Made by a program: the position numbers and the translations under genes. Below, one piece after another: positions 42,210 to 58,720 of a stretch of DNA of 64,000 nucleotides (position 1 is its first letter; each line of letters opens with the position of its first letter). The stretch comes from a virus. Taxonomy: Duplodnaviria > Caudoviricetes. The notes below the pieces were generated by a model. It ran no database searches. It was not told the origin of the DNA and worked only from the letters and a program-made list of their open reading frames with translations. The stretch lies in IMG/VR virus record IMGVR_UViG_3300025889_000071. One strand, written 5' to 3'.

Positions 42210-42269
42210 ACTGGGCCCTGTAAAGTGTCCTAGTGATGTGAGGGAGAGCAATCAACTTCACAACACCAG

Positions 42270-42298
42270 TTGACAACGGTTCTCCGATTTGTTATACT
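42270..42298 (+). promoter_or_regulatory. Sigma70-like promoter for the DUF262 gene
   Basis: TTGACA-N17-TATACT with a TG extended -10 element. Confidence 0.8.
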
Positions 42299-42358
42299 GA
42301 CCTCATCAAACGAAACACTGTTTGATCTCGTATCCTTCTTCTAACATATTGAAGAAGT

Positions 42359-43597
42359 ATGCAAAAACCCACACTTTTTCAAACTTCAATTATGCAGACC
42401 AATCAAAATTTTATGATCCCGCTCAAGGAGCCTATTAGTCTTCTTGAATATGCTTACCTTCTGCTTAAGACCCGTAAGTTTTGTGCTCCAGAGCAATTCC
42501 AACGCCCTGAAGCATGGCAAGTAAAGGATCGTAAATCATTTTTTCAATCAGTGTTGATGAATCGTGCAGAAGGCACTCTTGTCTTGGTTGATATTCAACA
42601 ATGTATCGAACGTATGGAATATGGCGGAGATACAAGTAGCGATACTTATAAATTTTTCAAAAAATACTTTAATGAAGGGTTCAAGTATTTTGTTCTAGAT
42701 GGTAACAACCGTCTGTGCTTTATCACTTCTCTTCTAGAAGATAATTATCTTATTCCCGAAGGGACTTACGAATTTATCAGTGATGAAGTCAACGGAAACA
42801 TTTCATCATTTACTGTTCGCAAGGGAAAGCAAAAGTTCTCTGACCTGCCTACACGAGTTCAACGTGTTATTCAATCTCGAAAGTCTGTGTTGAGTGTCTA
42901 TACTCAAATTACCTTGGAAGGTATGTCTGAAGTGTTCCAAAATGTGAACTCTGGTGTTCCTCTTAACGCACAAGAACTTCGCAACGCATATTCTTCTCCT
43001 TGGGCTGAGTTTTTTCGCGATCTTTCAAAGGAGGTTGCACCTCTTCTTGGTTACACTCACAAAGACCCCATTTTCCGTCTTAAGGGTCAAGAATGGTTGG
43101 TTGATTGTATTGCCATGGCAATTGATGGAATTGCAATCAATGAAGTTACTGGAGAACTTCAATTTACTGGAGTTACACAAACATCTAAAAACAAACTGTA
43201 TAAGAGCACTTTCTTTACTCAAGAGGAGCAAAACTTCTATACTAATAAATTCATTGAATTGATGGATTTCATTTCTCAAATGCTCCATGATGAAATTCTT
43301 GAAGAAAAATCTCTCAAGCAAAAATCTAAAATCCAAAATCTTTATTGGATGATGACAACTGTTGATGGAATTGAGACCTATGATCAAGCAGTTGCAGCTG
43401 TTGAAAAGCAAGAAATTGCTTATCTTGACAAGCAACGTAAGTTTGGTGAAGAGGACAAAACCTTCCGTCAATGTTGTGAAGGCATGAATGCTGAAAACTT
43501 GGAGGTTCGATACACAATTCTTACCGAAATTCTTACCGAAGTGGTCGGTGAGCGCAATGATTTCTCTACTCTCAATGAAGTTTTTGAAAGTGTCTGA
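42359..43597 (+). CDS. DUF262 (ParB-like / GmrSD N-terminal) domain protein
   Basis: FQRPEAW...SFFQSVL, VLDGNNRL, EVFQNVNSGVPLNAQELRNA. Confidence 0.8.
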   Translation: MQKPTLFQTSIMQTNQNFMIPLKEPISLLEYAYLLLKTRKFCAPEQFQRPEAWQVKDRKSFFQSVLMNRAEGTLVLVDIQQCIERMEYGGDTSSDTYKFFKKYFNEGFKYFVLDGNNRLCFITSLLEDNYLIPEGTYEFISDEVNGNISSFTVRKGKQKFSDLPTRVQRVIQSRKSVLSVYTQITLEGMSEVFQNVNSGVPLNAQELRNAYSSPWAEFFRDLSKEVAPLLGYTHKDPIFRLKGQEWLVDCIAMAIDGIAINEVTGELQFTGVTQTSKNKLYKSTFFTQEEQNFYTNKFIELMDFISQMLHDEILEEKSLKQKSKIQNLYWMMTTVDGIETYDQAVAAVEKQEIAYLDKQRKFGEEDKTFRQCCEGMNAENLEVRYTILTEILTEVVGERNDFSTLNEVFESV

Positions 43598-44008
43598 ACC
43601 TTGCGTTAGTTAGGAAGGAGTTTCAAGGGTTCTTTGAGTAATCATTGGGCCCTTCAAAGTGTTTTAGTTCTGTAACCATCTATTCTATGAAACGAGAATT
43701 TATCTGCGTTCAACCAAAATCCAATAAAGCAAAGAATCGTTTTGCTAATGAGATGGATAAACTTCATTCTTGTGTTGTTGAACAACGCACAGGAGGAAAG
43801 GTGTTTCTATCTTCTATCAGTGGAAAATACTCTTTTTGGATGAGTGAATCCTCTGATGATAACTGGGACGTTATTTAGCACTAGGCATAAATTTTTGTTG
43901 CCAAATGTCCTGATTTTCACACATTTTTGATAAATAGTGATAGAATTATGAGGTACACCCATGAATCCGTATTCTACATTATGATGTTCAATGTGCTTGG
44001 AGGATATT

Positions 44009-44185
44009 ATGCACAATCTTATTTCTTACAATCAACTTGCGGGTTGGAAGCAATTTGAAACGACACTGAATCATTTCAATGAGCAAAGCGATGTCATCAA
44101 TGATTACTACCAATGTTTAATAGAATGTGATGACAAACAGCATATCTGCAAAAAAATTTGTAAGGAGGTGCTCAATCAAGAATAA
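44009..44185 (+). CDS. Small Cys-containing conserved hypothetical protein
   Basis: MHNLISYNQLAGW...DYYQCLIECDDKQHICKKIC; GGAGG SD upstream. Confidence 0.7.
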   Translation: MHNLISYNQLAGWKQFETTLNHFNEQSDVINDYYQCLIECDDKQHICKKICKEVLNQE

Positions 44186-44201
44186 TAATAATACATAGCC
44201 C

Positions 44202-44230
44202 TTGACGTAACCCGTCAGGGGTTTTATACT
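44202..44230 (+). promoter_or_regulatory. Sigma70-like promoter overlapped by an inverted repeat
   Basis: TTGACG-N17-TATACT; CCCTTGACG/CGTCAGGGG stem. Confidence 0.65.
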
Positions 44231-44238
44231 AAAACTGG

Positions 44239-44676
44239 ATGGTAAATCTCATGAAACTGCAACCTCTTCTTCTGGCATTAACTGTTTTTTGTTCTGCTGC
44301 TCCTGCAAGTGCAGAGGTTTATATGTATCATGAATCATATTGCTATGAGAATATAGAAGAATATGTGCCAGGGTATCGTAATCGTTGGGGAAGATATGTT
44401 GGTGGTTATGTAAAGACAACTAGATCTAGAGTTCCATGCCACAGACATAGAAGTTATAGATCTGAACATCATCACTATCATTCCAATAACAACAATAATC
44501 AAAGCAAATCTAATGGAAAGAAAGACGATAATTCATGTATTGAAGGAAGTATATTAGGTGGTATTGCTGGTGGTGGTGCCGGTGCAGCTTTGTCTAGAGG
44601 AGATGGACGCTTTTGGGCGATTCCTACAGGCATTGTAGCTGGTGCATTAGTTGGATGTCAAATTGATGGCGGCTAA
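44239..44676 (+). CDS. Signal-peptide, glycine-zipper membrane protein
   Basis: Hydrophobic leader; GSILGGIAGGGAGAALS...GIVAGALVGC. Confidence 0.7.
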   Translation: MVNLMKLQPLLLALTVFCSAAPASAEVYMYHESYCYENIEEYVPGYRNRWGRYVGGYVKTTRSRVPCHRHRSYRSEHHHYHSNNNNNQSKSNGKKDDNSCIEGSILGGIAGGGAGAALSRGDGRFWAIPTGIVAGALVGCQIDGG

Positions 44677-44940
44677 ACAAAAAAACATAGTCACTTATGT
44701 AACCATGAATCTGGGGCAAGACAATACGTTTTGCAAATATCCTGGTAAAATGGTTACTATAGGAACGATGTCAATTGCACTATACTGGTTAGTAATGCTT
44801 GGTATGGTTGTAAACGCATATTATCATCATCACATCAACGTTGATATTGTTACAAAGTGTTAAGCAAATAAAAAGAGAATCTTAAAAAAACGGATCAGGT
44901 CAAAAATTCATAGTAAAATATTTTGAATCACACATAATCA

Positions 44941-46931
44941 ATGACCCGACCATCAAAATCCACCGAACTCACTCAAGAAGAGTGGAACGATATGAAAGCA
45001 ATCCGAAATGCTATCAAAGAAAGACCACATTCAGTTCATCCTGATAAGATGGAGGCATTTACAGAGTATTTGATTCGTAGCATGAGGGGAATGGATTGTT
45101 GAAACTGGGCCCTTCAAAGTGTTCTGTTAATGTAAGCACCATTCCAATGTAGCATGATAGATTTAGATAAACTTTCGCACGAAGAAAAGGAAGCCCTTGC
45201 AGAAGATTGTGAGGACTATCTTTTACATCGTAACATTCCTCTCTTTTCGCATTCATATGATAACATCATTTTACATGCGTTAAGAGAGGGTTATCAGATA
45301 AAAAAGTTCGATCGTTTCACGAATAAACCACAATGAACAATAAAAAAACAAACAAATCAAATCGTCAAGAAGAAAAATTTTGGAATCAAATTGAAAAGGA
45401 AGCTTCAAAGTATGAAGTAACCGTTGATTATTATTTGGATGAATTTGTTATTGATAATCAATACTTCATGAAAGATTGACAAGGACTTCATTTTTTATTA
45501 TACTTTTGAGGTAATCTAACCAAATCAATGACAAAGTATTTCTACACTGTTGACCACTTCATTCCCTTTCCCCGTTCTGAATATGGTGGAGTGTGGGTTG
45601 TTGTTGCCGAAAATGATGAAGAATGTTTTGATCTGATCACTGCTGAAGATGAAGGAGCGAACGATGACTATTATGGTCGTCTTCGTGAAAACATCATGAA
45701 GGCACCAACATATGCTCTTGCTGAAGAGTATGATTCTGGTATTGTGGAGCAATTTACGACATGAATCTCAAAGATATTGAATTTGGTCATAAACCACCAA
45801 AAGGATTTCGGTATGAGGTAAGAGATTTCAAACGTAATGTTATTTCTATTTGGTTATGTCATCCAAATGTATACACATACAAATCTGAACCCATAAAAAC
45901 AATCTGGGGATTTTATGATACCAAGAAAAAACAATATCTTGCTCCTAAAGATTGTAAAACTGTAGGTAAAGTTGTAGATTTTGCAGATACAAGAAATTAT
46001 ACTGCGATGCAACTCAATCTAAATCCTCTAGAGAGAGCTTTTTTATGACATATACGCCAAAGGTTAATGATTATGTAAAATGGCATCATGGCGAATTTAT
46101 TGATGAAGGATGGGTTTATTTTCGATGTAGTGATTACATCACAATTGAAGTTGGAACAAAGGATAAACCAGATACATTAGTTGATATTCACAAGAAGACT
46201 CACATTCTTGTTGTATGTCAAAACTGGTATTGGCACGAGTTAGAGTATCTCCACAGTCGTGGGGATATTGGTGTAAGTGAGTATAAATCTCAAGAACATA
46301 GACCCATTGACCCTTAAATCATGTATCAAGTGAATTATCTTAAACCTAAAAAGAAAGGTTTTGCAAATCATTCAGCATCTTTCATCAAAATTGAAGATGC
46401 TATTTTTTGGGAGAAACTCAAAAAGACAGAGGGATGTAAGGATTTTCAAATTCTGGTTAAGTAAAACTGGGCCCTCTAAAGTGTTCCACTATTGTAATCA
46501 ACGATTCACACAAAATGGATTGGTTCGACGACATTCAAATTGAAGAACTTTCTAACTTTGATTATCAAGAAGATCCTCTCGAAGAGGAACTCTTTGAAGA
46601 AAACAATGATGAGAAAGCTTTTCAAGCATTTCTAAAGTCTAACTGGGATTTTTGATCTAAACATTTATAACTTTTCACCTCAACTGTACTCAAAATGAAC
46701 TCTTCTAGCACTCTTTACGAACTCCAAGAACTCAAGAAACTCTGGAGGAATCAATCTTTCTACTTTTCTCAAGAGCAAAAGAAACGTTATGAAGAACTTA
46801 CGAAACTTCGTCATGCTCGTGTCAAAGAATTGTATGAAAATGATATGGTCTTCAAACCTGGAGTAACTAAATAATCTGAATATATGTGGGCAGTCAACGC
46901 TGCAGGGGTGTAATGTTGACGTAAGTCCCAC
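44941..46931 (+). CDS. Cluster of small early-type hypothetical ORFs (e.g. 44941-45102, 45154-45336, 45333-45479, 45528-45764, 45761-46048, 46045-46317)
   Basis: Tightly packed ORFs, several with ATGA overlaps; promoter TTGACA-N17-TATACT at 45476-45504. Confidence 0.65.
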
Positions 46932-46938
46932 TTTATGT

Positions 46939-46946
46939 TATAAATA
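46939..46946 (+). promoter_or_regulatory. T4-type late promoter inside a potential hairpin/pseudoknot
   Basis: TATAAATA between complementary arms 46901-46914 and 46947-46960. Confidence 0.7.
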
Positions 46947-46968
46947 ATGATACCCCTGCAAAAGAATT

Positions 46969-47277
46969 ATGAAAGATGTATTCGCGTCCCTGCAAGAAAT
47001 GGAGTGGGACGACTATATCCCACCCGAAGATATTATCTCCATTCATGATACCGACTTCACAAAACTTCCACGCTGCGAATGGAAGACTAAAAGGTATTGG
47101 TGGAATAATGGAGTTGATGAAACATTGCAAGAAAAATGTCCTCCTGGATGGAAAAGGGGCAGGGCAATGAGTGAAGAGCATAAAAATAAATTTAAATGTC
47201 AACCTGGCAGGCAAAAAGGTATCCCAAAAAATACAAACAGAAAAAGAGACAGTAAAGGGAGAGTTTGTGGCAGTTGA
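46969..47277 (+). CDS. Protein resembling the DNA-binding tail of homing endonucleases (NUMOD3-like), no nuclease domain
   Basis: WWNNGVDE....CPPGWKRGR and MSEEHKNKF motifs. Confidence 0.55.
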   Translation: MKDVFASLQEMEWDDYIPPEDIISIHDTDFTKLPRCEWKTKRYWWNNGVDETLQEKCPPGWKRGRAMSEEHKNKFKCQPGRQKGIPKNTNRKRDSKGRVCGS

Positions 47278-47344
47278 AGAGGTGTCCCTGACCCCTTGAC
47301 TTCTAGCGGCAATAAATATAAGATATGAGTAGTCAAGAACACCA

Positions 47345-47914
47345 ATGAAAACCTTTTCTTCTTTTTTAGCAGAAGTTTATGATCGTGATGTCATGGGTTC
47401 TTCACAAATTCGCAAACAAGGCGAAGGTGGAAGAGTTGGAGCTGATCGTAGAAAGACAGAAGCTGAAAAGCGTCGCACCAAGTTAGGACCAGGAGGAACA
47501 AGAGTTCCTGCTAAATCTTACAAACCAAGAAAAGATATTGGTACGCAAAGACAAGCATCTACAAGATTGCAGCAACCAGAGAAAGAAAGAGGTGCTGCTG
47601 ATGTAAAAGCAAGAGCAGCTGCAGCAGCAAAGGAAGAAAGAAAGAAAGCAGCACAGGCAAGAATTGCTGCAAGAAAAGCAGGCAAACCTGCACCAACAGC
47701 ACAAAAACCAAAATCAAAAGATGCTGAAAAGGAAGGCACTAAATTACTCTCAAAAAAAGGGACTACTCAAAAGAAAACTGGTGAGAAAATTGAAAGAACA
47801 ACTTCACGCCAATACACCAGAGATGAAAAGAAAAGAATGGTAAGAGCTGGCAAGAGATTGCAAAAAGATTTGCAAAAAGGAGTTGATAGACCTGCTTCAC
47901 ATTACCAACCATAA
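47345..47914 (+). CDS. Basic, Lys/Ala/Arg-rich conserved cyanophage hypothetical protein
   Basis: MKTFSSFLAE start; promoter TTGACT-N17-TAAGAT at 47296-47324. Confidence 0.7.
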   Translation: MKTFSSFLAEVYDRDVMGSSQIRKQGEGGRVGADRRKTEAEKRRTKLGPGGTRVPAKSYKPRKDIGTQRQASTRLQQPEKERGAADVKARAAAAAKEERKKAAQARIAARKAGKPAPTAQKPKSKDAEKEGTKLLSKKGTTQKKTGEKIERTTSRQYTRDEKKRMVRAGKRLQKDLQKGVDRPASHYQP

Positions 47915-48022
47915 TCTCACTGGGCCCTTCAAAGTGTCCTTGTAGTGAGTCCATAATCGTCCATAACACCCTTGACACTGACGTTGAGGGTGTTATACTA
48001 TCTTTATCGTAATTCTATTTTG

Positions 48023-49213
48023 ATGGTCACACTTCGTCCTCATCAGCAACGTATTCTTGATCGTATGCTTGCCTATGATAAGGGTCAAATTATTGTGCCT
48101 ACTGGTGGTGGCAAAACTATCTGTATGATTCAAGATGTTGCAGAGAATTGTAAGCACATTGATAACGGAATGACCACGGTTGTGGTTGCTCCTCGTATTC
48201 TTCTTGCAGAACAACTTTGCAGCGAGTTTCTGGAGATTATTGATACAAATTACAATCACATTATGCACGTTCATAGTGGTGAGACACATCACTTCTCTAC
48301 CACTAATCCAGAGAAGATTGCATTGTTTGCTAACACTGCTCGCACAGCTGGTGAGAATGTAATCATCTTCACCACCTATCATTCTCTGGACAGAGTTCGT
48401 CAAGCAGATATTGAAGTTAATAACATTTACTTTGATGAAGCACACAATTCTGTTCAACGAAACTTCTTTCCTTCTACAGAGTTTTTCTCTCATGATGCTG
48501 ATCGTTGCTATTTCTTTACTGCGACTCCGAAACATTCTCTTACGGTGAGCAAACCAGGGATGAATGACCCAGAAGTTTATGGTCAAGTCCTGGTCAATGT
48601 TCCTGCTCCAGAGCTTGTTGATGGTGGATACATTCTCCCTCCCAAAGTTGTTGTAAAGCAACTTGATATGGTTCAGGATAAGTTCAAGATTTGGTCTCGT
48701 GATTGTGACTTTCTGATGCAGACCATTGATGACCAGCAAACTGATAAAGTTCTGGTCTGTGCTCGCACTACCAAACAGATTGTTGGTCTTATCGGTGAGA
48801 GTGATTTTGCACTTGAATGTGCCAAACGTGGCATGTCTTGGATGACAATCACCAGCAAGACTGGTGCTATCATTGACGGTCAGAAAGTGAACCGTGAGGT
48901 ATTTTTTGACACTCTCAATGCTTGGGGTAAAGATTCCAACAAGAAGTTTGTGGTTCTTCATCACTCTATTCTATCTGAAGGTATCAACGTAAATGGTTTA
49001 GAGTCGGTAATTTTCCTCCGCAACATGGACTTTATAGGTATTAGCCAGTCTATTGGACGAGTTATACGTCTAGGAGGCAGCCACAAGACCTTTGGATTGG
49101 TCTGTGTGCCCGTTTATGACTCTGTGGGTATCTCTACCTCCCGCAAGGTTCAGGCAGTCGTTGACACCGTATTTGAGCAAGGTTTGCCAGCAGTTTCGGA
49201 GATCCGCAGATGA
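48023..49213 (+). CDS. SF2 (DEAD/DEAH-like) helicase
   Basis: LRPHQQ, VPTGGGKT, FDEAHNS, FTATPK, LSEGINV, QSIGRVIR; promoter TTGACA-N16-TATACT at 47972. Confidence 0.88.
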   Translation: MVTLRPHQQRILDRMLAYDKGQIIVPTGGGKTICMIQDVAENCKHIDNGMTTVVVAPRILLAEQLCSEFLEIIDTNYNHIMHVHSGETHHFSTTNPEKIALFANTARTAGENVIIFTTYHSLDRVRQADIEVNNIYFDEAHNSVQRNFFPSTEFFSHDADRCYFFTATPKHSLTVSKPGMNDPEVYGQVLVNVPAPELVDGGYILPPKVVVKQLDMVQDKFKIWSRDCDFLMQTIDDQQTDKVLVCARTTKQIVGLIGESDFALECAKRGMSWMTITSKTGAIIDGQKVNREVFFDTLNAWGKDSNKKFVVLHHSILSEGINVNGLESVIFLRNMDFIGISQSIGRVIRLGGSHKTFGLVCVPVYDSVGISTSRKVQAVVDTVFEQGLPAVSEIRR

Positions 49214-49452
49214 GTTATCAACCAACAAATTCTTATATTCTTGAACCACAACAATCCCCACTAGGTTTTATTGTTGGTAACTGGAATGACCCTAATGTTT
49301 ATGCAGCAGTGCCATTGTCTGGTAGTAAAACACAATTAGTTGTTATACATCGCGGGAGACAAATTAAAACATGTCGCAATCGCCAATCAGCAATCAACTT
49401 TATTGAAAAACATAGAAAAGGTAAAAGTGTAGCAAAACTGCCCATTGATTGA
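49210..49452 (+). CDS. Small hypothetical protein
   Basis: ATGA overlap with the helicase stop. Confidence 0.65.
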   Translation: MSYQPTNSYILEPQQSPLGFIVGNWNDPNVYAAVPLSGSKTQLVVIHRGRQIKTCRNRQSAINFIEKHRKGKSVAKLPID

Positions 49453-49481
49453 TAGTGGGCCCTTCAAAGTGTCCTTATAGT

Positions 49482-50381
49482 ATGCAGAACAAACACATCG
49501 AACACCCCGAAGATTTTATTCTCACTGGTGACTTATCTGTTTTGGATTGGTTTTGTGAGGATGACAGTTATGTTTCTCTCAAGATTGATGGTGCTCCCGC
49601 TATTGTTTGGGGTATCAATCCTGCCACCAATCAATTCTTTGTAGGAACCAAATCAGTTTTCAACAAGAAACTAATTAAAATCAATGAAACGCATGATGAC
49701 ATTGATCAGAATCATTCTGGCAATGTTGCTAACATATTACACCATTGTTTTGATTACCTTCCTCGTATCAACGGGATTATTCAAGGTGATTTTATTGGGT
49801 TCGGTGGTAGTGATACTTTTCAGCCCAATACGATTACTTACAAGTTTCCGGAGACGATAACTCAAAACATTATCATTGCTCCACACACTTTTTATACGGC
49901 AGAGCATGATCTTCGAGATGCTATTGCACAACCATTGAAGTTCACTATCACTGACACAATGTATTGTAAGATTGTGCATCCTGATGCGTGGATTCTTGAT
50001 GACATTGATTTGCACAAGTCTGCACGATTTGCACGTCAGATGTCAACTCTGGTTGAATTTGCGACACCAAAGCAACTTCCACTCATCAAGAAAGTTCTCA
50101 ATACCTACTTCAAGATTGGTGCAGAGATTGATGAGGATGAAATTGCATATATTGCACAATGTGATGTCAACCTGATTCGGCTTTGGAAGTTGGTAAGGTC
50201 TATCAAACAGGATATGCTTTACATGTGTCAGAATGATTCTGATATGCAATGTGAAATCAATGATGAAGAAGTTGATCATGAAGGTTATGTTTGCACAAAT
50301 CAGTTTGGTACATACAAACTGGTAGATCGCGAGGTCTTTAGTCGCCAAAATTTTATTAACGATAAAGTATGGGCCCCTTAA
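49482..50381 (+). CDS. Conserved hypothetical protein with a KxDG ligase/nucleotidyltransferase-like motif
   Basis: MQNKHIEHPED...SLKIDGAPAIVWG...FFVGTKSVFN...IIQGDF...HEGYV...YKLVDR..FS. Confidence 0.6.
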   Translation: MQNKHIEHPEDFILTGDLSVLDWFCEDDSYVSLKIDGAPAIVWGINPATNQFFVGTKSVFNKKLIKINETHDDIDQNHSGNVANILHHCFDYLPRINGIIQGDFIGFGGSDTFQPNTITYKFPETITQNIIIAPHTFYTAEHDLRDAIAQPLKFTITDTMYCKIVHPDAWILDDIDLHKSARFARQMSTLVEFATPKQLPLIKKVLNTYFKIGAEIDEDEIAYIAQCDVNLIRLWKLVRSIKQDMLYMCQNDSDMQCEINDEEVDHEGYVCTNQFGTYKLVDREVFSRQNFINDKVWAP

Positions 50382-50410
50382 AGTGTCCTATTGATGAGAA
50401 CGAAATTATC

Positions 50411-50986
50411 ATGAATCTAACTGCAATCGTTGAACTCTATGAGACTGAAGTTGATCAACTTCCCCAGACTCATTTTGAGTTAGGTGGTGGTGCTGCTCGT
50501 TCTGAATCTGGTTTGGTTTATGAGAACCTGATTGAACGTACTTGTAATGAACTGGCTTTAGATGCCCGCAAAAATGATTACAAAAGCACTGAAGTAGTTG
50601 ATGGCACTTGCCTGAAGAATCTTCAAGTTGATAAGCACATCTATCGTAATGGTGTGATGGTAAAAGCAGTAGAATCTAAAACATATTTGGATGCTTGCTA
50701 TCTGAAACGTGCTGTAATGGATTTCATCGAACTGGAGCAATCTCCTGAAGTTCCTGAATGGGTAGAGTACGCAATCTTTGCAGGACAAAATGCTTGTGGT
50801 AAAGATGCTTTTGCATACTATCAAGCATTTTTCAAAAAGATTACTGGCAAAGAAGTAAAGATCTTCTTTGTGAATCCTTCCCGCAAGCGTTCATCTTCTC
50901 GCCCCATCTACAAGGAAGAGTATCGTGAAGATTTTAAGCTTGACTCTGTAGTGTATAATGAGTTTGTGGAATGGTTGAACAAGTGA
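50411..50986 (+). CDS. Putative PD-(D/E)XK (type II restriction-like) endonuclease
   Basis: YENL...QVDKHI...AVESKTYLD catalytic spacing; coupled to the methyltransferase by TGATG overlap. Confidence 0.6.
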   Translation: MNLTAIVELYETEVDQLPQTHFELGGGAARSESGLVYENLIERTCNELALDARKNDYKSTEVVDGTCLKNLQVDKHIYRNGVMVKAVESKTYLDACYLKRAVMDFIELEQSPEVPEWVEYAIFAGQNACGKDAFAYYQAFFKKITGKEVKIFFVNPSRKRSSSRPIYKEEYREDFKLDSVVYNEFVEWLNK

Positions 50987-51723
50987 TGCTGTATAACGAT
51001 GATATGTTCAATGTTCTGGGCAATCTTGAACCCCAGAGCATTGATCTTTTGCTGACAGATTTTCCCTATGGCACACTCAACAAGTCCCGTAATCAATGGG
51101 ATCGTGTGATTGATTATGAAAAGTTCTGGGAGATTGTTGATATTATCTGCAAACCAAATTGTGCTATCATTTCTACAGCAGCACAACCATTTACATCGGT
51201 ATTGATCTCTACAAATTATAGGGATTTTAAGTATTGCTTGGTATGGGAAAAAAGTAAAGCAACTGGATACCTGAATGCTAAAAAGCAACCGATGAGAGCA
51301 CATGAAGATATTGTAGTTTTTTACAAGAAACAACCAATCTACAATCCCCAGATGACAAAAGGTACTCCATATGATAAGGGTAAAGCTGTGAGGGATGCAG
51401 AACAATATGGAAAGCAAACTAAAGCTGTGCATGTCAAAAATGAAGATGGGACAAGATACCCTCGCAGTGTACTATATTTTAAGACAGCAGAAGATGAGGG
51501 TAAATTGCATCCTACACAGAAACCTGTTGCACTCTATGAATATCTGATTCGCACATATTCTAATGAAGGTGATACTGTGCTCGATCCTTGTATGGGTAGT
51601 GGCACCACTGGAATTGCTGCTTTTAATACTAATAGAAACTTTATTGGAATTGAACGTGAAAAGAAATACTTTGATGCTGCACAGGAAAGGTTAAATCTAC
51701 CACTATTGAATGCGATGGCATAA
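50986..51723 (+). CDS. N4-C/N6-A DNA methyltransferase (beta class)
   Basis: IDLLLTDFPY (motif IV variant), HPTQKPVAL, VLDPCMGSGTTG (motif I), FIGIE. Confidence 0.92.
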   Translation: MLYNDDMFNVLGNLEPQSIDLLLTDFPYGTLNKSRNQWDRVIDYEKFWEIVDIICKPNCAIISTAAQPFTSVLISTNYRDFKYCLVWEKSKATGYLNAKKQPMRAHEDIVVFYKKQPIYNPQMTKGTPYDKGKAVRDAEQYGKQTKAVHVKNEDGTRYPRSVLYFKTAEDEGKLHPTQKPVALYEYLIRTYSNEGDTVLDPCMGSGTTGIAAFNTNRNFIGIEREKKYFDAAQERLNLPLLNAMA

Positions 51724-51763
51724 TTGGGCCCCTTAAAGTGTCCTATTGATGTAGGTAAAGATT

Positions 51764-52279
51764 ATGATTTCACTTCCTAACCCAAACAGAACCATGATTG
51801 TTGAATCTACCAATTCTGAAACTTTTTCTGATTTCTGTGCTCAACGTGATGCACAGAATACCATTCAGTTGAATGTCACCAAGTATTGTTTTATGCTTTG
51901 TGATGCACTGCTGAAGAATTTCATTGATTACAGCATCAAGTCTCATCAACGTGCGATTGCTAACTACAACTACACTTATGGTAATGATGATTCAACTCAA
52001 TCAAATTATCATCAGGCATGTATTGAAGACCTGAAGAATGGTCAATGTGGTTATGAGTTCACTGTAGAGTCTGGTCGTAAGTATCACAAAATTATGATGA
52101 GTGCCAATGGTTCTCGTTCCGTTCATGCTTTTGTTGATAGAAAGACTGGCGAAGTTTACAAACCTGCCAGTATCAAAGCTCCTGCCAAAGGTGTTCGTTA
52201 TGACTTGCGATTGATTGAACAACGTGAATGGTTGTTTGAAAATGCAGATTGGGCAGGAGGGTATCTTTATAAGAGGTAA
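51764..52279 (+). CDS. Conserved cyanophage early hypothetical protein
   Basis: GRKYHKI...SVHAFVDRKTGEVYKPAS.KAPAKGVRYDL...ADWAGGYLY. Confidence 0.75.
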   Translation: MISLPNPNRTMIVESTNSETFSDFCAQRDAQNTIQLNVTKYCFMLCDALLKNFIDYSIKSHQRAIANYNYTYGNDDSTQSNYHQACIEDLKNGQCGYEFTVESGRKYHKIMMSANGSRSVHAFVDRKTGEVYKPASIKAPAKGVRYDLRLIEQREWLFENADWAGGYLYKR

Positions 52280-52734
52280 TGTGCTATACTGAACATGTTC
52301 AATTAAGAGGTTATTATGAACGATCAACGTCATTATCATACTGAAAGTGAGCGTAAACAACTTGATGGAGTTGTCACTGATTCTGATATAAATGGGTGGA
52401 ACATTTCTAAATTGAATCGCATGAAAGTTCGTGCAAACAATCTTCCTGATGACTCTCTGATTATTGATGATGAACTACACTAAACAACAACTTGTTGATG
52501 CACTTCAACATGAATATGAGTACATGATTCATGATGATTATGATCCTGATGTTGATATGACTCTGGAAGAACATCTTGAATGGTTACATACACTGACCAT
52601 TCAAGAATTGGTTGAAGAAACATCAACCGATGAAGATTATTATACGCTTGATCAATTCATGTATAATCATTCATGACAAGTAAAGAAAAACTTCTGTTCA
52701 TTTCATCATTCGTTTGGTTTCTACACTGGGGAAC

Positions 52735-53157
52735 ATGTCTAGCATCTACACTTCTGGATACGGTTATTCTAAAAAGCTCTGTGAGAGTGTTACCTCTTGG
52801 TTTTTGAAGAAGTATTATCCACGTCATAAGATTGATGTGGATATTTTACATCGTGGATTGAGACGTGAAAATGTACTGGGGTATTGTGATGTAGTTGGTC
52901 CTTCTTATCGACCAAGACATTTCCTGATTGAACTTCAGACCGATATGTGTAAGGAGTTGTATATAAAAACTCTTTTACATGAATTGACTCATCTTGCACA
53001 ATGGGTAAGAGGTGATCTACGACACCGATATGGAAAATTGTGTTATTCACAAGAACCAGTGGAAATCTATGACTATGAAGATCAACCACATGAAATTGAA
53101 GCACGAGAGGAAGAAGAAAGACTCTACAATCTGTACTGTAATGAAATCTTAACATAG
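52735..53157 (+). CDS. HEXXH zinc metallopeptidase-like protein
   Basis: TLLHELTHLAQW...QPHEIEAR. Confidence 0.7.
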   Translation: MSSIYTSGYGYSKKLCESVTSWFLKKYYPRHKIDVDILHRGLRRENVLGYCDVVGPSYRPRHFLIELQTDMCKELYIKTLLHELTHLAQWVRGDLRHRYGKLCYSQEPVEIYDYEDQPHEIEAREEEERLYNLYCNEILT

Positions 53158-53194
53158 TTGCACTTAAGAATTTCTTCAACTACAATAAAGAAAA

Positions 53195-56100
53195 ATGGAA
53201 AATGGTCAAGAGATGCAAGCTATCAGGGACTTTCTAACAGATGAGCAGTGGCACATTGTGATTGATGCTATCGAACAAGAAGCATTTTTATTGGATGAAA
53301 GTGAGGAGTATTTTGATAAGTGTGAGGACATTATAAACAGAATCCATTCATTGCTTCACATTACTGGGCCCTCTAAAGTGTCCTAGTTGTATGAAGACCA
53401 CTATGAAAGAAAACAAGATGACAACACTTTTCCGTCAAGGAATCAAATTTGAAGAGTATTGGGGCACTGAAGTTCGTGCTCATCATATGAACACTCGTTC
53501 TGTTTATCGTCTGCTGGAAGATGATGACATTGCGATCACACATTCCGCACCATATGTTGATGGTGAAAGTGTTGATCAATTTGCTGTAACTTTCACCGAA
53601 GTTACTGCATATCATGAGAATGGAAATGTGTTATCATCAACCACAAAAACACTTGGAGTTTATGATAACTGGTTGGATGCTTATTACCGAGCATTCTCTA
53701 TTCTAAACAAGAAAACATTAGCACAACTTGTGTGATCATGAGAATTGACATTGTAGGTCGAATTATCGGAAGCTTTCTGGTTGTTTCTGCTTATTTTGTT
53801 GTTTTACATGTAAATGTAACATTTGGAGTTCTGATGCACTTCATTGCCGATGCAATTTCCATTCCATTCTTTATACGAACAAAGTCATGGGATGTTGTAA
53901 TTATGTTGGCATTTCTTTTAATCATTTCAACTAGCAAACTGTTCAATTTGGGAGGAATCGTATCATGAAATGGGATGTGAAACTGTATGTTGCCGGAAAG
54001 GTATTTACCGAAGAAGTTTATGCCCGAGATGCACAAGATGCAAGGGAGACAGCATTAGCACGAAATCCCACTGCTAAAGTTATTGGAGTGAATGGGAGTT
54101 TCAAATAGTGGGCCCCTTAAAGTGTCTCATTAGTGTAAGCACAGTTCAGAAAAATGCAAGAATCAAAGTTCCTTCTTCACGGTCAACATCATCGTTCTAA
54201 TGGTTGGGTGATGAATGATTGTTTAGGTTACATCAAAGAAACAAAAGAGGATGCGATTGCTACATGTAATCGACTCAATCCTAACTTTGTGATTCACTCT
54301 ATCACTGTTGAAGAATGACCAAAGCAACACACAAACGATTCACACACATCTTTTGATTATGAACGAAACTGAACTCGAAGCTCTTGAAGTGATGGAAACC
54401 ATTGAGGATTCCGTTGAATATATTTGTAATGAGTATATGTTAAGTGGAGAGAAAGTTTGGACTATGATTGCAGCACTTGCTGATGCAAAGATTGCACAAT
54501 TTCCTGATTGATAATGAGTGGGCCCTTGAAAGTGTTTCAGTAGTGTAAGTCGTTCGTTATTTCAGTCATGCAACTCACTTCCAAAGATGGTAACATGGTT
54601 GTTGATTTCTATCCCGTCAAATTTGCAGACGGTGGGATTCACAATCGTTTGATGCTCAAAGTTGTGACTTTTATTGGTGCAACTCAATCCAAATCTTACA
54701 TCAACAAGAAAGATTTTCAGCATGAGGTTGATTCTCGTGTGAAGGGTTATGGTTATCAAGTCACTGATGATTCGATGATTCCACAACTCTTTAACTCTGC
54801 AATGTGTCTTGCTTGCTGATGTCAATTATTCAATCTTATCTTCACAATAAAATGATGGATCGTCTTGAAATGCTTTCTCAACGTGAACAATTGATGGAGG
54901 ACATTGATTGTATTGTATCGGCACAATATGGTCAAGGAAATGAAGAACTTGCTGATGAAATGATTAAGTTGTTATGTGATGCTGTTTGCAAAAACTTTCC
55001 TGCTAACTGATGTCATTTGTTTCCACCTTTGATCATACTAATTCCATGACTGACAACATCATCAACCGTGACGAATTGCAGGACAATCTTATTCATCAGA
55101 TTCTGGATGATATGGATTTGAAGACGATGTATGCTTGCTTATATGATTACATGTCTGAAAGCTATGACAAGTATTCAGTTGATGAAATTGTCGAAGAAGT
55201 CGAAGAGTATTACCCACAATTGTTGGAGGATGCAGATAACTCTTAAAACATGTCAATTTACAAAGATTACTGGACTAAACCAAAACCAACGAAAGAACCC
55301 AAATCAAAAGAATCCAAATGAAAACATCATTTTGTAATGGCAATTCATGGTCTAAATTTGATGCTTACTATCATGATGATAGTGAACAATGGACTTATGA
55401 ATTGATTGATGGACATCACCGCACAAGTTTAATTTACGAGGATAATGATGATGAAATTCTACAAGATTACTGATATTGAGTTTGATTTTGATTATGAAGA
55501 CATTACATTGGAGGAACAGAATGAAGTGATCGAAGGTGCCAAAGCTTGTCTATGGGATGCAACAAATGAGGATGATCTTTGTGATGTCATTAGTGACAAC
55601 ACCGGATGGTTTGTGAAGTCATTCTCTTATGATGTTATTCGATAACAAACACTGGGCCCCTTAAAGTGTTTCAGTAGTGTAGAAACGAAACAACTCTCTC
55701 AAATGTCTCAACAACTCAATGCTTCTATCTATCGTCAACTCTTCACTGATTGTGAGTGGGATGCTATCTCTTCTGCAATGAAAGATTATGCTGATTATGG
55801 TGACGAAGAAGCAAACATTGCTGATTCGATTGATGCAAAGATCACTCAAATTTTCAAACTTACTGCCTGATTATGTTACATCAACTCCCTAACGGTAAAA
55901 TCATCATGCACGATGGATTAATCCGTGAACTTGCTATTCAACGAATGGAAACTTATGATCGTTGGATACAAGACAATCGTGAACAATTAAAGATCGAATC
56001 TCAACAACTTTTCGATGATATGTTCGGAGGTTAATTCTTTCAATGACTCCGAAATCTTCCGAGGTTTTCCGAGTCGAGTCACGCCCCTAATTTTATCAAA

Positions 56101-56708
56101 AAACTATGATTCTTCTGACATCTGATTCTCACGGTTGTGTGTATACTATTGACAGTGAAGGTTGTTTATACTATATGCCCAAACATCTTGATGGATCAAT
56201 TAACTTTGAAGAACTTGCAGAAGTTGAATCTGTTGATGAATTAGATGATGAAGATACTTCTCAAATTCATTCTCAATTGATTACAATGTCCAAATCAATT
56301 GGTCATTACTTCTGTTAGTGGGCCCCTGAAAGTGTTTCAATAGTATAGGATACCATTTCTCTCATGCGTAAGATCGAACAACAAATGAACAATGCCATTT
56401 CTAACAACAAGTCCTGGCAATCTGCAAACACCAGTGTTGTTTGTGATGACAATGGTGTCTCTCATGTGTATCTTCATGGCAACAAGATTGCAGAGGTTGG
56501 TGATGACTTTGTTCAGATCTTTGATGGTGGTTGTCAATCCAATACCACCAAATCCCGTCTGAATGCTATTCTCAAAGAACATGCAATTGATGGTGAGTGT
56601 GTGTATCAAAAGAACTTCAAATGGTATGTTGATAAGTTCATTGGATGTGCCGGAACTTTCAAGGTTTATAACACTTTCGAGTTCACTGATGGTTTCATGT
56701 TTGCCTGA
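53195..56708 (+). CDS. Cluster of small, mostly acidic early-type ORFs (53195-53386, 53391-53735, 53732-53968, 53965-54108, 54568-54819, 55010-55246, 55445-55645, 56106-56318, 56364-56708 and others)
   Basis: Dense co-oriented ORFs punctuated by the TGGGCCC repeat. Confidence 0.65.
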
Positions 56709-56713
56709 TTGAT

Positions 56714-57517
56714 TTAACTCTCTTCTCTATACCATCTGCAACCCTTCCAACTATATCTGGAAGGGTTTTTTAATGCCTTCGTTACACCTGTAGCTTTGCC
56801 GCTACCTAACACTCTACCCGCTTCTCTTATACTATCAAAGTGATATATGATTTTCCCGTCTAATATACGCTTGCCATAGATTTTATGGGAGTAAGGTCTA
56901 TTATCTAATTTCTCCCACTTATATCCATATGCCACAATCTTCTGTTTGATTGCTCTACTGATGTTGCCAGAACCTCCTTTGATTCCTATACTCTTCCGCG
57001 CTTCAGTTATGCTATCAAATTCAAGAACTTCTCCCGTCTCGACATTAGTTGCTCTGACTTTTCTCCTAGCATGTTTACCATCACCGCTCTTATCTCCGAA
57101 TGGATTAACCCCTTGATATTTGTCTTTTAGAGTATTACGTATTGAAGCAATATGTTCAGGAGACTTTTCTTTCCCTTGCATAGTTGTTGATATTCTATCC
57201 CGAACTTCTTCGCTTATCTCTTTTGCTTGTTCTCCGCCTGTTGTTAGATTGTATCCGTTGTTAAATGTATCAAACTGTTCTATCCAATATCTCTCCCTAT
57301 CCGAGAGTTGCGCCGCTGGGATATTAGTTTCTATTTCACGGACAGTAAACATAGAGACGCCATATTTCTTGATTGCTCTATACAATGGTCTGTGTGATTT
57401 ACTCTTCGATTCTGTTATATGATGCCGCCATCTTTCGCCCACGGTCTTGATAGTCTGACCGATATATCTCTTGCCATTTACCTTACAAATGATTGAGTAG
57501 ATTGTCCCAGTTGTCAT
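56714..57517 (-). mobile_element. Free-standing GIY-YIG (Seg-like) homing endonuclease with NUMOD DNA-binding repeats
   Basis: IYSIICKVNGKRYIGQT...RW..H...ERYWI....TFNNGYN; KSPEHIASI (NUMOD3); FDSITEA and FDSIREAGR (NUMOD1). Confidence 0.88.
56741..56771 (+). terminator. Rho-independent terminator ending the early cluster
   Basis: ACCCTTCCA-loop-TGGAAGGGT followed by T run. Confidence 0.75.
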
Positions 57518-57794
57518 AAGATAGCGTGTGATAGAAGGCTTTACTATGTATGATAAAATGCCCCGCTAAATGGTGTCTATATAAAGGTTTAGCGAATTTA
57601 TTGTTAGTAACTCCGAATGCACTGTGTAGTTACTTTGGGGCGTATTTACAGTGTTTTTAATGTGTCTAGGAGTAGTGATTTTAGACTGCCCCAGCTTATC
57701 ACACCACCGAGAAATTGTCAACCCCCCGATGTCAGAATTTCCAGAAATAAGACTTACAAAAATCACACTGATTCTGATAAATACCTGCAATGAC

Positions 57795-57823
57795 TTGACA
57801 GAAATGCTCTGTTAGATTATACT
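57795..57823 (+). promoter_or_regulatory. Sigma70-like promoter
   Basis: TTGACA-N17-TATACT, upstream of the small ORF starting at 57853. Confidence 0.8.
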
Positions 57824-58104
57824 ATAAAAGTCACTCAAATCCCCCCAAAGATATGTCAGTTGCTTATCGCCAGGCACAGAAACAGCGTTATCGCATTACT
57901 CTTGAGCTTGATGTAATGCATGACTTCGACCCGCACCAGCTTGATTGGGAGAAACTCTTTGAGCTGGAACCGGCAGAGAAGGTGACAGCTTATGTGGAGG
58001 ACTTGAGCACACCGGACTTTTGGTGAGTTATAAACAGTGGGCCCTGTAAAGTGTTCTAGTAGTATAAGGGACGCAATCGGACGGACCCACTGACACCTCA
58101 CCGA

Positions 58105-58691: not shown

Positions 58692-58720
58692 TTGACATCA
58701 GTCTCTTCCCGTATTATAAT
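58692..58720 (+). promoter_or_regulatory. Perfect-consensus sigma70 promoter with no downstream ORF
   Basis: TTGACA-N17-TATAAT. Confidence 0.85.

Follow-up and report, generated by a model that had tools for sequence, protein, structure and literature searches.

The stretch analyzed here, 64,000 nucleotides (nt) of the virus record IMGVR_UViG_3300025889_000071 (Duplodnaviria; Caudoviricetes) and called the window below, comes from a contig that is a T4-like cyanomyovirus. Between the late fiber operon and the baseplate module it carries a small-gene region around uvsW, which is covered by an array of a short element, TGGGCCC-N3-AAAGTGT. The DNA of the region matches that of T4-like Synechococcus myoviruses weakly, uvsW being 73 to 77% identical. 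In addition to uvsW, the array includes GmrSD_N-like, cAMP-phosphodiesterase-like, DUF6267, N6/N4 DNA methyltransferase, and DUF7717 genes and about 40 small open reading frames (ORFs). Besides the elements, the region harbors seven sigma70-consensus promoters (42270, 44202, 45476, 47296, 47972, 57795, and 58692), while terminators are nearly absent from it.

In a pattern scan of the window, TGGGCCC-N3-AAAGTGT turned up exactly 14 times, with every copy on the plus strand and start points from 42212 to 58038 (Table 1), in agreement with the first-pass annotation, which had described 14 same-strand copies with two invariant 7-bp halves. Allowing up to two mismatches added no copy in the window (shuffled sequence leads one to expect 0.00 matches, or 0.29 with two mismatches). 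The scan of the whole record, 89,134 bp, also found no copy beyond the 14 (the same annotation had noticed none outside 42.2 to 58.1 kb), and the heptamer TGGGCCC is restricted on the plus strand of the record to these elements. The hexamer GGGCCC occurs 16 times in the 89 kb, 14 times inside the element and nearly nowhere else.

Counted from the T of TGGGCCC as position 1, the element is about 28 bp long. The left box, TGGGCCC, is invariant in 14/14 copies while the adjacent N3 differs freely among them, a contrast that speaks for the box being under selection and against mere gene conversion or homogenization. The looser tail noticed earlier is real, T being invariant at positions 23 and 26, so that a hexamer T(A/G/T)nT(G/A)T lies at positions 23 to 28. 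Most copies had been said to adjoin or overlap the upstream stop codon, and 13 of the 14 do: 11 begin 0 to 11 nt after it, 2 overlap it (50370 and 53365), and the exception, 43646, lies 48 nt away. Both suggested subfamilies were recovered, copies 50370 and 51725 having 27 nt in common and copies 54519 and 55653 a 19-mer. The even length of the first five intervals, also pointed out then, is nominally unusual (P of about 0.007 against 419 spacings in relatives, in a post hoc test) but is not conserved in the nearest relative. The latter is represented by two contigs, L120 and L063, 93 to 98% identical to the window; in L120 the intervals are 1434, 1289, 1362, 1136, and 1535 bp, small insertions/deletions (indels) having broken the evenness. 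We therefore rejected even spacing as a functional feature and treat it as a coincidence.

A motif scan of related phages, proposed earlier as a check, found the same right part of the element in many contigs and isolates. The complete pattern TGGGCCC-N3-AAAGTGT matched at least 111 stretches in IMG/VR, many of those listed carrying 3 to 11 copies, and in 111/111 loci among the matches listed all copies of a locus were on one strand. The consensus of the 245 unique IMG/VR instances among the matches listed was A-C-TGGGCCC-yTG-AAAGTGT-CCyar-TAGTAT-rA, followed by a G-poor, C/A-rich tract. The right part, AAAsTGT-N5-TAGTrT, is shared by hundreds of uncultured contigs and by the isolates S-SM2, SynMITS9220M01, P-TIM68, and S-B05. 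A weight matrix restricted to the right part (positions 11 to 30) found 554 sites in the relatives' loci, versus none in shuffled sequence at the same threshold.

The left box is specific to the genome. Its classes comprise TGGGCCC, CCGGCC(C/T), GGGGACG, GGGGTCG, ACTCACC, TGTAGC(C/T), and TGAAGCC. In the 84 loci with at least 3 copies, 445 of 500 copies had the majority box of their own locus, and 73 loci were homogeneous to within 1 mismatch. Boxes have been swapped at orthologous sites: four orthologous junctions whose flanking genes are 80 to 98% identical carry boxes of different classes, and between contigs L174 and L082, with flanks 95% and 98% identical, about 12 bp differ (aaagg-GGGGACG versus attac-TGGGCCC). 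The GGGCCC palindrome that had been pointed out in the left half is not what defines the element, other genomes having nonpalindromic boxes in its place (ACTCACC, GGGGTCG, AGTTACC).

The arrays of the four isolates are given in Table 1. In the complete genomes of P-TIM68, S-SM2, and SynMITS9220M01 they form a single co-oriented stretch of 9 to 16 kb around uvsW, and reversed-pattern controls gave no match in any of the three. The array of S-B05 (MK799832) is split between the minus strand (31.7 to 40.3 kb) and the plus strand (156.0 to 157.0 kb); the reversed control, with two mismatches allowed, gave 5 matches per strand in this genome, and all 14 counted copies are exact. S-B05 has the ACTCACC box in common with SynMITS9220M01 and a different middle box, AAAnGTC. 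No element of the window type was found in Syn9 or P-TIM40.

The simplest account of such a private box would be a reader that is not the same from phage to phage. A host factor might also fill this role, but it would require very different specificities in related hosts. Box class bore no simple relation to UvsW similarity: TGGGCCC occurs at UvsW identities of 57 to 100%, and closer relatives have other classes or none. The DNA methyltransferase of the array was set aside as the reader, since its gene occurs in few related loci. We also rejected an RNA or DNA hairpin, integron-like imperfect palindromes included, because the dyad ACTGGG/CCCAGT lacks covariation (at the test pair, C-A is as frequent as C-G) and is missing from most box classes; Rfam gave no match to the element.

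The earlier suggestion that the element is regulatory is backed by context, as judged from sequence: the element keeps a fixed geometry to start codons, stands where orthologous sites have canonical promoters, and points in the same direction as the genes. Orthologues of the DUF6267 gene are preceded, depending on the lineage, by the window-type element, by a -10 box behind a terminator hairpin whose loop contains TTGACA, or by a unit of the Syn9 type, an early-gene regulatory element of T4-like cyanophages reportedly described by Doron et al. in 2016. Since some lineages have undoubted promoters at this site, the element takes a place that a promoter fills elsewhere. The -10 box of the Syn9-type unit ends 6 nt before the ATG of the DUF6267 homologue (L127, L156, L186, L189, L192, L195, L196, and others), suggesting that these genes are probably leaderless.

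The distance to the start codon points the same way. An ATG is found at element position 27 in 216 of 446 unique instances and opens an ORF of at least 45 codons in 197 of them, 86 of which lack a second in-frame ATG within ten codons; in the other instances, ATG lies mostly at positions 42 to 51. In the DUF6267 gene the ATG at 27 aligns with the conserved N terminus. A fixed distance between element and ATG is a signature of leaderless or nearly leaderless genes, so the start point probably lies at or before position 27. In 17 of the 446 instances, 10 of them with ATG at 27, a good intrinsic terminator stands 10 to 20 nt upstream of the element, implying that the downstream gene needs a start signal of its own. 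Six instances from three box classes, window copy 1 among them, have a TTGACA-like hexamer exactly 17 bp upstream of positions 10 to 15, compared to about one at neighboring offsets. This spacing suggests that (T/G)AAAGT acts as a -10 box, with a start near 21 to 24, at a conserved T-A step. A test on divergent genes had 1 usable case in 398, too few to bear on promoter function.

Where exchanges between relatives involve the element, their breakpoints are exact: homology stops at positions 21 to 32 and restarts at -3 to +1. Five contigs that are 95 to 99% identical have four unrelated contents in one slot between two copies, homology ending there at positions 23 to 31; in one of the five, the right-hand copy is a hybrid in which the right half is the resident one and the box, GGGGACG, is foreign, which indicates a crossover within the element. 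Gene adjacency is conserved across relatives at 11% of element junctions versus 35% of others; several element-free junctions are equally fluid, and the ends of high-scoring segment pairs cluster at gene boundaries alike for elements and for other gene starts.

We consider it moderately probable that the element is a compact promoter without a -35 box, whose private specificity box is read by a factor, and that it doubles as a recombination seam. The 14 copies would then be a two-part intergenic signal of about 28 bp that one subgroup of T4-like cyanophages places at the head of transcription units in its hyperplastic region of small, early-type genes. The core signals would lie in the shared right part, (T/G)AAAGT at 10 to 15 and a second, TAnnnT-like hexamer at 23 to 28, and transcription would probably start near positions 21 to 24, yielding a leaderless or nearly leaderless mRNA where ATG is at 27 and a short C/A-rich leader without a Shine-Dalgarno sequence where it is at 40 to 51. 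The 7-bp left box (TGGGCCC here) may be the specificity box for a trans-acting factor that differs between phages. The 11 to 14 near-identical, co-oriented copies could also serve as homology patches for the general recombination of the phage, the blocks between copies being exchanged as happens with promoter(early) stem-loops (PeSLs). We infer promoter function, start point, timing during infection, and the factor from sequence.

Several observations weigh against this explanation, those on promoter function being taken here and those on recombination further below. The hexamer kept in all classes is the one at 23 to 28 (TAGTAT, TAGTGT, TAATGT), which together with the left box fits the textbook -35/-10 spacing, and no middle-box hexamer fits TAnnnT in every class. 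The element might thus be a promoter of classical geometry, with the left box at -35, TAGTAT at 23 to 28 as the -10 box, and a start at about 35, in which a phage activator replaces the contacts of sigma region 4 in a MotA-like manner and genes with ATG at 27 are translated only from read-through transcripts. No other hexamer is retained in every class, P-TIM68 (TAATGT) and L141 included; box and hexamer are spaced 16 to 17 bp apart; and a conserved rAgcA and the C/A-rich tract follow. Moreover, cyanomyoviruses are without motA and asiA, and their early/middle control has been called unclear (PMC2984593). A start near 35 would nevertheless fall downstream of the ATG at 27, which serves as the true start codon in no fewer than 86 instances, some behind a terminator, and which points to an earlier start site. 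It would also cut off the ribosome-binding AAGGA of P-TIM68 at positions 33 to 37, and only 8 of the 14 window copies have A as the second, key base of the hexamer. We regard classical geometry as improbable.

The abutting stop codons and the rarity of upstream terminators also count against a pure promoter, since read-through transcripts must carry the element as well. It could therefore act at the RNA level, as an intercistronic or 5' site on polycistronic early transcripts, such as a processing site that yields mRNAs with short leaders or the operator of a translational repressor, for instance a RegA homologue. Its strict placement on the coding strand would agree with this, as would the start codon taken in by its 3' end in 197 of 446 instances, given that T4 RegA binding sites overlap the AUG. 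The regA gene belongs to the cyanomyovirus core (PMC2984593). Neither conserved pairing or covariation nor an Rfam match accompanies the element, however, and an ATG lies within it in only 2/14 window copies. RegA-bearing lineages with Syn9-type promoters show nothing similar at the same start codon, a genome-private 7-bp box is hard to square with a conserved RegA, and terminator-element-ATG arrangements require a promoter. An RNA-level signal is, in our estimate, about as improbable as classical geometry.

The two -10-like hexamers, at 10 to 15 and 23 to 28, are 13 bp apart, and a start near 22 would put the second at +2 to +7, where the pause hexamer of lambda PR' lies. The element might accordingly combine a promoter with a promoter-proximal, sigma-dependent pause at which the box loads a processivity or antitermination factor, comparable to Q at lambda PR'. 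A phage-specific DNA site adjoining the -10 box and arrays that are nearly free of terminators would suit such a device. It is very unlikely in our view, because it is built on geometry, no Q-like gene was seen, and there are 11 to 14 copies per genome where the Q system has a single site.

With respect to recombination, all element copies are in place in L120 and L063, only that at 54109 failing the exact pattern (in L063). None of the six differences between the window and this nearest relative (Table 1) is bounded by elements on both sides. We also counted indels and replacements in all close pairs with flanks at least 88% identical in element-bearing loci: the 60 distinct events had an element at both ends in 10 cases, at one end in 20, and at neither in 30. 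Per boundary, about 33% of indel ends were at an element, which is near the roughly 28% of gene junctions that have one (14 of about 50 in the window). The expectation that gene-content breakpoints would fall at the motif agrees with the exact edges of the events that involve the element and disagrees with the half that do without it. Two of the six differing segments, 46875-47362 and 44673-44839, are absent from L120; the former holds a 102-codon ORF (46969-47277) without a homologue in the relatives' loci and brings in the Syn9-type unit at 47271.

The first-pass annotation had also entertained an integron-like role, that is, a dedicated site for the capture and excision of single cassettes. 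Replaced segments that end exactly at element edges, the multiallelic slot with its hybrid copy, and a replaced unit that brings its own 3' element (window versus L063) would all be expected of such a site. Among the ten largest ORFs (at least 145 amino acids [aa]) between 42 and 58 kb, Pfam and PHROG revealed no recombinase or integrase; there is no hairpin, the exchanged cassettes comprise 1 to 6 genes, and the fixed distance to the start codon would be left without an explanation. Together with the 30 element-free events and the lack of any element-to-element difference from the nearest relative, this largely refutes a dedicated site, which we hold to be extremely unlikely. What stands of the recombination proposal is a weak, PeSL-like sense, seen in the exact element-edge breakpoints and the hybrid copy; recombination at the array looks PeSL-like, not integron-like.

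A candidate partner or reader of the element, to be taken as a lead only, is the very basic protein encoded at 47345-47914. Its gene occurs in 17 of 24 uvsW-anchored loci with the element versus 2 of 35 seemingly without it, and these two loci proved to contain another variant, ACTCAGC-tcc-TGATTGT-accag-TAGTGT. A search of 50,697 phage records found the family only in S-SM2 (SSM2_065, our L199), SynMITS9220M01 (SynMITS9220M01_053, L201), P-TIM68 (gp045, L202), the S-B05 group, and two single-cell viruses. All four tested isolates with the protein have arrays, the main array of S-B05 being far from the gene. Members are 175 to 246 aa long, with a well-conserved N-terminal part of 90 aa and variable C-terminal modules, and their genes have a conserved late-promoter-like CTAAATA upstream, often with a Syn9-type unit as well. 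An AlphaFold2 model has low confidence (pLDDT, 63.6; pTM, 0.22) and shows several helices and no compact fold, only the C-terminal helix being confident. C-terminal variants correlate partially with box class, TGGGCCC genomes having two C-terminal types. Shared ancestry of the region could also explain the association of protein and element.

Taken further, the promoter reading leads to a private promoter code in each phage, in which the 7-bp box would be recognized by a factor that the phage itself encodes and that brings host RNA polymerase to the 11 to 14 promoters without a -35 box, as a functional counterpart of MotA. We think this unlikely, if somewhat less so than classical geometry or an RNA-level signal. 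The candidate factor would be the basic 175- to 246-aa family, which may be carried in the virion and often lies behind a Syn9-type and late-type promoter. Were such a code to exist, box and factor would coevolve, which would account for the exchange of whole boxes between near-identical junctions, and the code could restrict how far genes taken up from phages with a different box class are expressed.

The onset of gene expression in T4-like cyanophages, which rank among the ocean's most abundant viruses and are devoid of T4 Alt, ModA/B, MotA, and AsiA, is still poorly understood. The element shows that a sizeable subgroup, S-SM2, SynMITS9220M01, P-TIM68, and S-B05 included, relies on a compact, half-private signal and not on the Syn9-type element. 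An ATG at element position 27 provides an annotation rule for start codons. Culturable systems make it possible to test what reads the box, whether new genes depend on the resident code, and what share of gene shuffling passes through the repeats.

Some neighboring features deserve mention. The interval 42359-43597, behind its own sigma70-consensus promoter, encodes a 412-aa protein with matches to GmrSD_N and DUF3843; homologues occur in 5 element-bearing loci versus 0 of 35 element-free loci. On the minus strand, opposite to the array, lies a GIY-YIG/NUMOD homing endonuclease gene (56714-57517), and its site measures 266 bp in L063 versus about 950 bp in the window, indicating a recent insertion. 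Ahead of uvsW, TTGACA lies inside the hairpin 47963-47996, whose 3' arm continues into TATACT, a layout that is truly PeSL-like.

TABLE 1 Element copies and other features of the window, differences from the nearest relative, and arrays of cultured phages (the latter in coordinates of their own genomes)
Feature	Coordinates	Strand	Remarks
Copy 1	42212..42239	+	N3 = TGT; TTGACA 17 bp upstream of TAAAGT (positions 10-15); next long ORF at +148, with own sigma70-type promoter
Copy 2	43646..43673	+	N3 = TTC; ATG at element position 42
Copy 3	45106..45133	+	N3 = TTC; upstream stop 3 nt before element; ATG at 49
Copy 4	46468..46495	+	N3 = TCT; closes conserved five-gene block 45333-46464; ATG at 48
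Copy 5	47921..47948	+	N3 = TTC; directly 3' of basic-protein gene; followed by hairpin and sigma70-type promoter, then uvsW
Copy 6	49456..49483	+	N3 = TTC; ATG at 27 is start of DUF6267 gene (49482-50381)
Copy 7	50370..50397	+	N3 = CTT; overlaps stop codon of DUF6267 gene
Copy 8	51725..51752	+	N3 = CTT; 3' of DNA methyltransferase gene; ATG at 40 (DUF7717 gene)
Copy 9	53365..53392	+	N3 = TCT; ATG at 27 opens 114-codon ORF (53391-53735)
Copy 10	54109..54136	+	N3 = CTT; stop of upstream ORF abuts; ATG at 46; inexact match in L063
Copy 11	54519..54546	+	N3 = TTG; ATG at 50
Copy 12	55653..55680	+	N3 = CTT; ATG at 51
Copy 13	56319..56346	+	N3 = CTG; right end of segment 56094-56363, replaced in L063
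Copy 14	58038..58065	+	N3 = TGT; last copy of array
Syn9-type (B-type) unit	47271..47324	+	CAGTT-N4-AGGTGTCC, then TTGACT-N17-TAAGAT overlapping late-type ATAAATA; upstream of basic-protein gene; only one in record
Basic-protein gene	47345..47914	+	189 aa, very basic; no Pfam or PHROG family
Sigma70-consensus promoter	42270..42298	+	TTGACA-N17-TATACT; serves GmrSD_N-like gene, downstream of copy 1
Sigma70-consensus promoter	47972..47999	+	TTGACA-N16-TATACT; ahead of uvsW, within 14-pair hairpin 47963-47996
Perfect sigma70 consensus	58692-58720		TTGACA-N17-TATAAT; just past last element copy
Difference 1	44673-44839		168-bp indel
Difference 2	near 46663		~130-bp indel
Difference 3	46875-47362		~450-bp indel
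Difference 4	near 54850		~186 bp extra in L063
Difference 5	56709-57658		homing-endonuclease insertion
Difference 6	56094-56363		one gene replaced along with downstream element and leader
S-SM2 array	42.7-58.5 kb		12 copies; GGGGTCG-N3-AAAG(T/C)GT
SynMITS9220M01 array	38.9-50.0 kb		11 copies; ACTCACC-N3-AAAGTGT
P-TIM68 array	47.1-56.1 kb		13 copies; AGTTACC-TCT-AAATTGA-N5-TAATGT
S-B05 array	31.7-40.3 kb, plus 2 copies near helicase		12 + 2 copies; ACTCACC-N3-AAAnGTC

Among known systems, the Syn9-type element has the setting in common with the window element. The small genes of the equivalent region in Syn9 are preceded by CCAGTT-N4-A(A/G)GTGTCCAC, then a -35 box, a 17-bp spacer, TATTCT, and a conserved leader. 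The CCAGTT-N4-AAGTGTC-like motif named in the first-pass annotation is this element, and the older-type copy placed near 47271 is indeed present as CAGTT-N4-AGGTGTCC followed by TTGACT-N17-TAAGAT. Both elements stand at the heads of small genes between the fiber and baseplate modules, and they are alike in genome region, strand logic, kinds of genes, and the AAGTGTCC core. In contrast, the window element has a genome-specific GC-rich box in place of the CCAGTT half, is not followed by a separate -35/-10 pair, and measures about 28 bp versus about 60 bp. Since the AAGTGTCC core alone is held in common, identity with the element of Syn9 or P-TIM40 was rejected. In the literature searched, which did not extend to the study of the Syn9 element (a study that reportedly calls its elements widespread), we found no description of a two-part element with a genome-specific box.

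The host PlmA site CGRE1 was rejected on sequence mismatch. This GntR-type site of picocyanobacterial yfr2 promoters is a 21- to 22-nt palindrome with GTTG...CAAC flanks located 55 to 57 nt upstream of the start site (PMC6191309), while the window element lacks such a dyad and has a variable half that is not the same in different phages. With T4 middle promoters the element shares only a logic, namely, no -35 box, a short specific box upstream of TAnnnT, and a proposed reading by a phage factor. The MotA box, centered near -30 and 11 to 13 bp before TAnnnT, is unrelated in sequence to the left box, which varies between phages. In the window element, 15 bp separate the left box from the hexamer at 23 to 28, although the start codons at 27 speak for an earlier start site.

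PeSL cassettes are known from RB49/phi1, T4/PST, and KVP40/nt-1 (Arbiol 2010, PMC2839356; Comeau 2014, PMC4122927), where homologous exchange takes place at repeated promoters; minicircles arising from neighboring repeats are one of the criteria for PeSLs. Structurally, the element is unlike them: it lacks sigma70-consensus -35 and -10 boxes, an AT-rich upstream tract, and a stem-loop terminator, one of its halves is private to the genome, and start codons lie at a fixed distance. TTGACA stands at a usable distance in copy 1 only, -35-like hexamers are rare in 443 instances, and none of the 14 window copies has an adjacent stem-loop terminator. The element thus fails both structural criteria and is not a true PeSL, yet it evolves like one. 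As with PeSLs, short regulatory repeats are present in many co-oriented copies that separate the small orphan genes of a hyperplastic region, some of the differences between close relatives have their ends at repeats, chimeric copies are found, and a dedicated recombinase is missing, in the window as judged from the larger ORFs.

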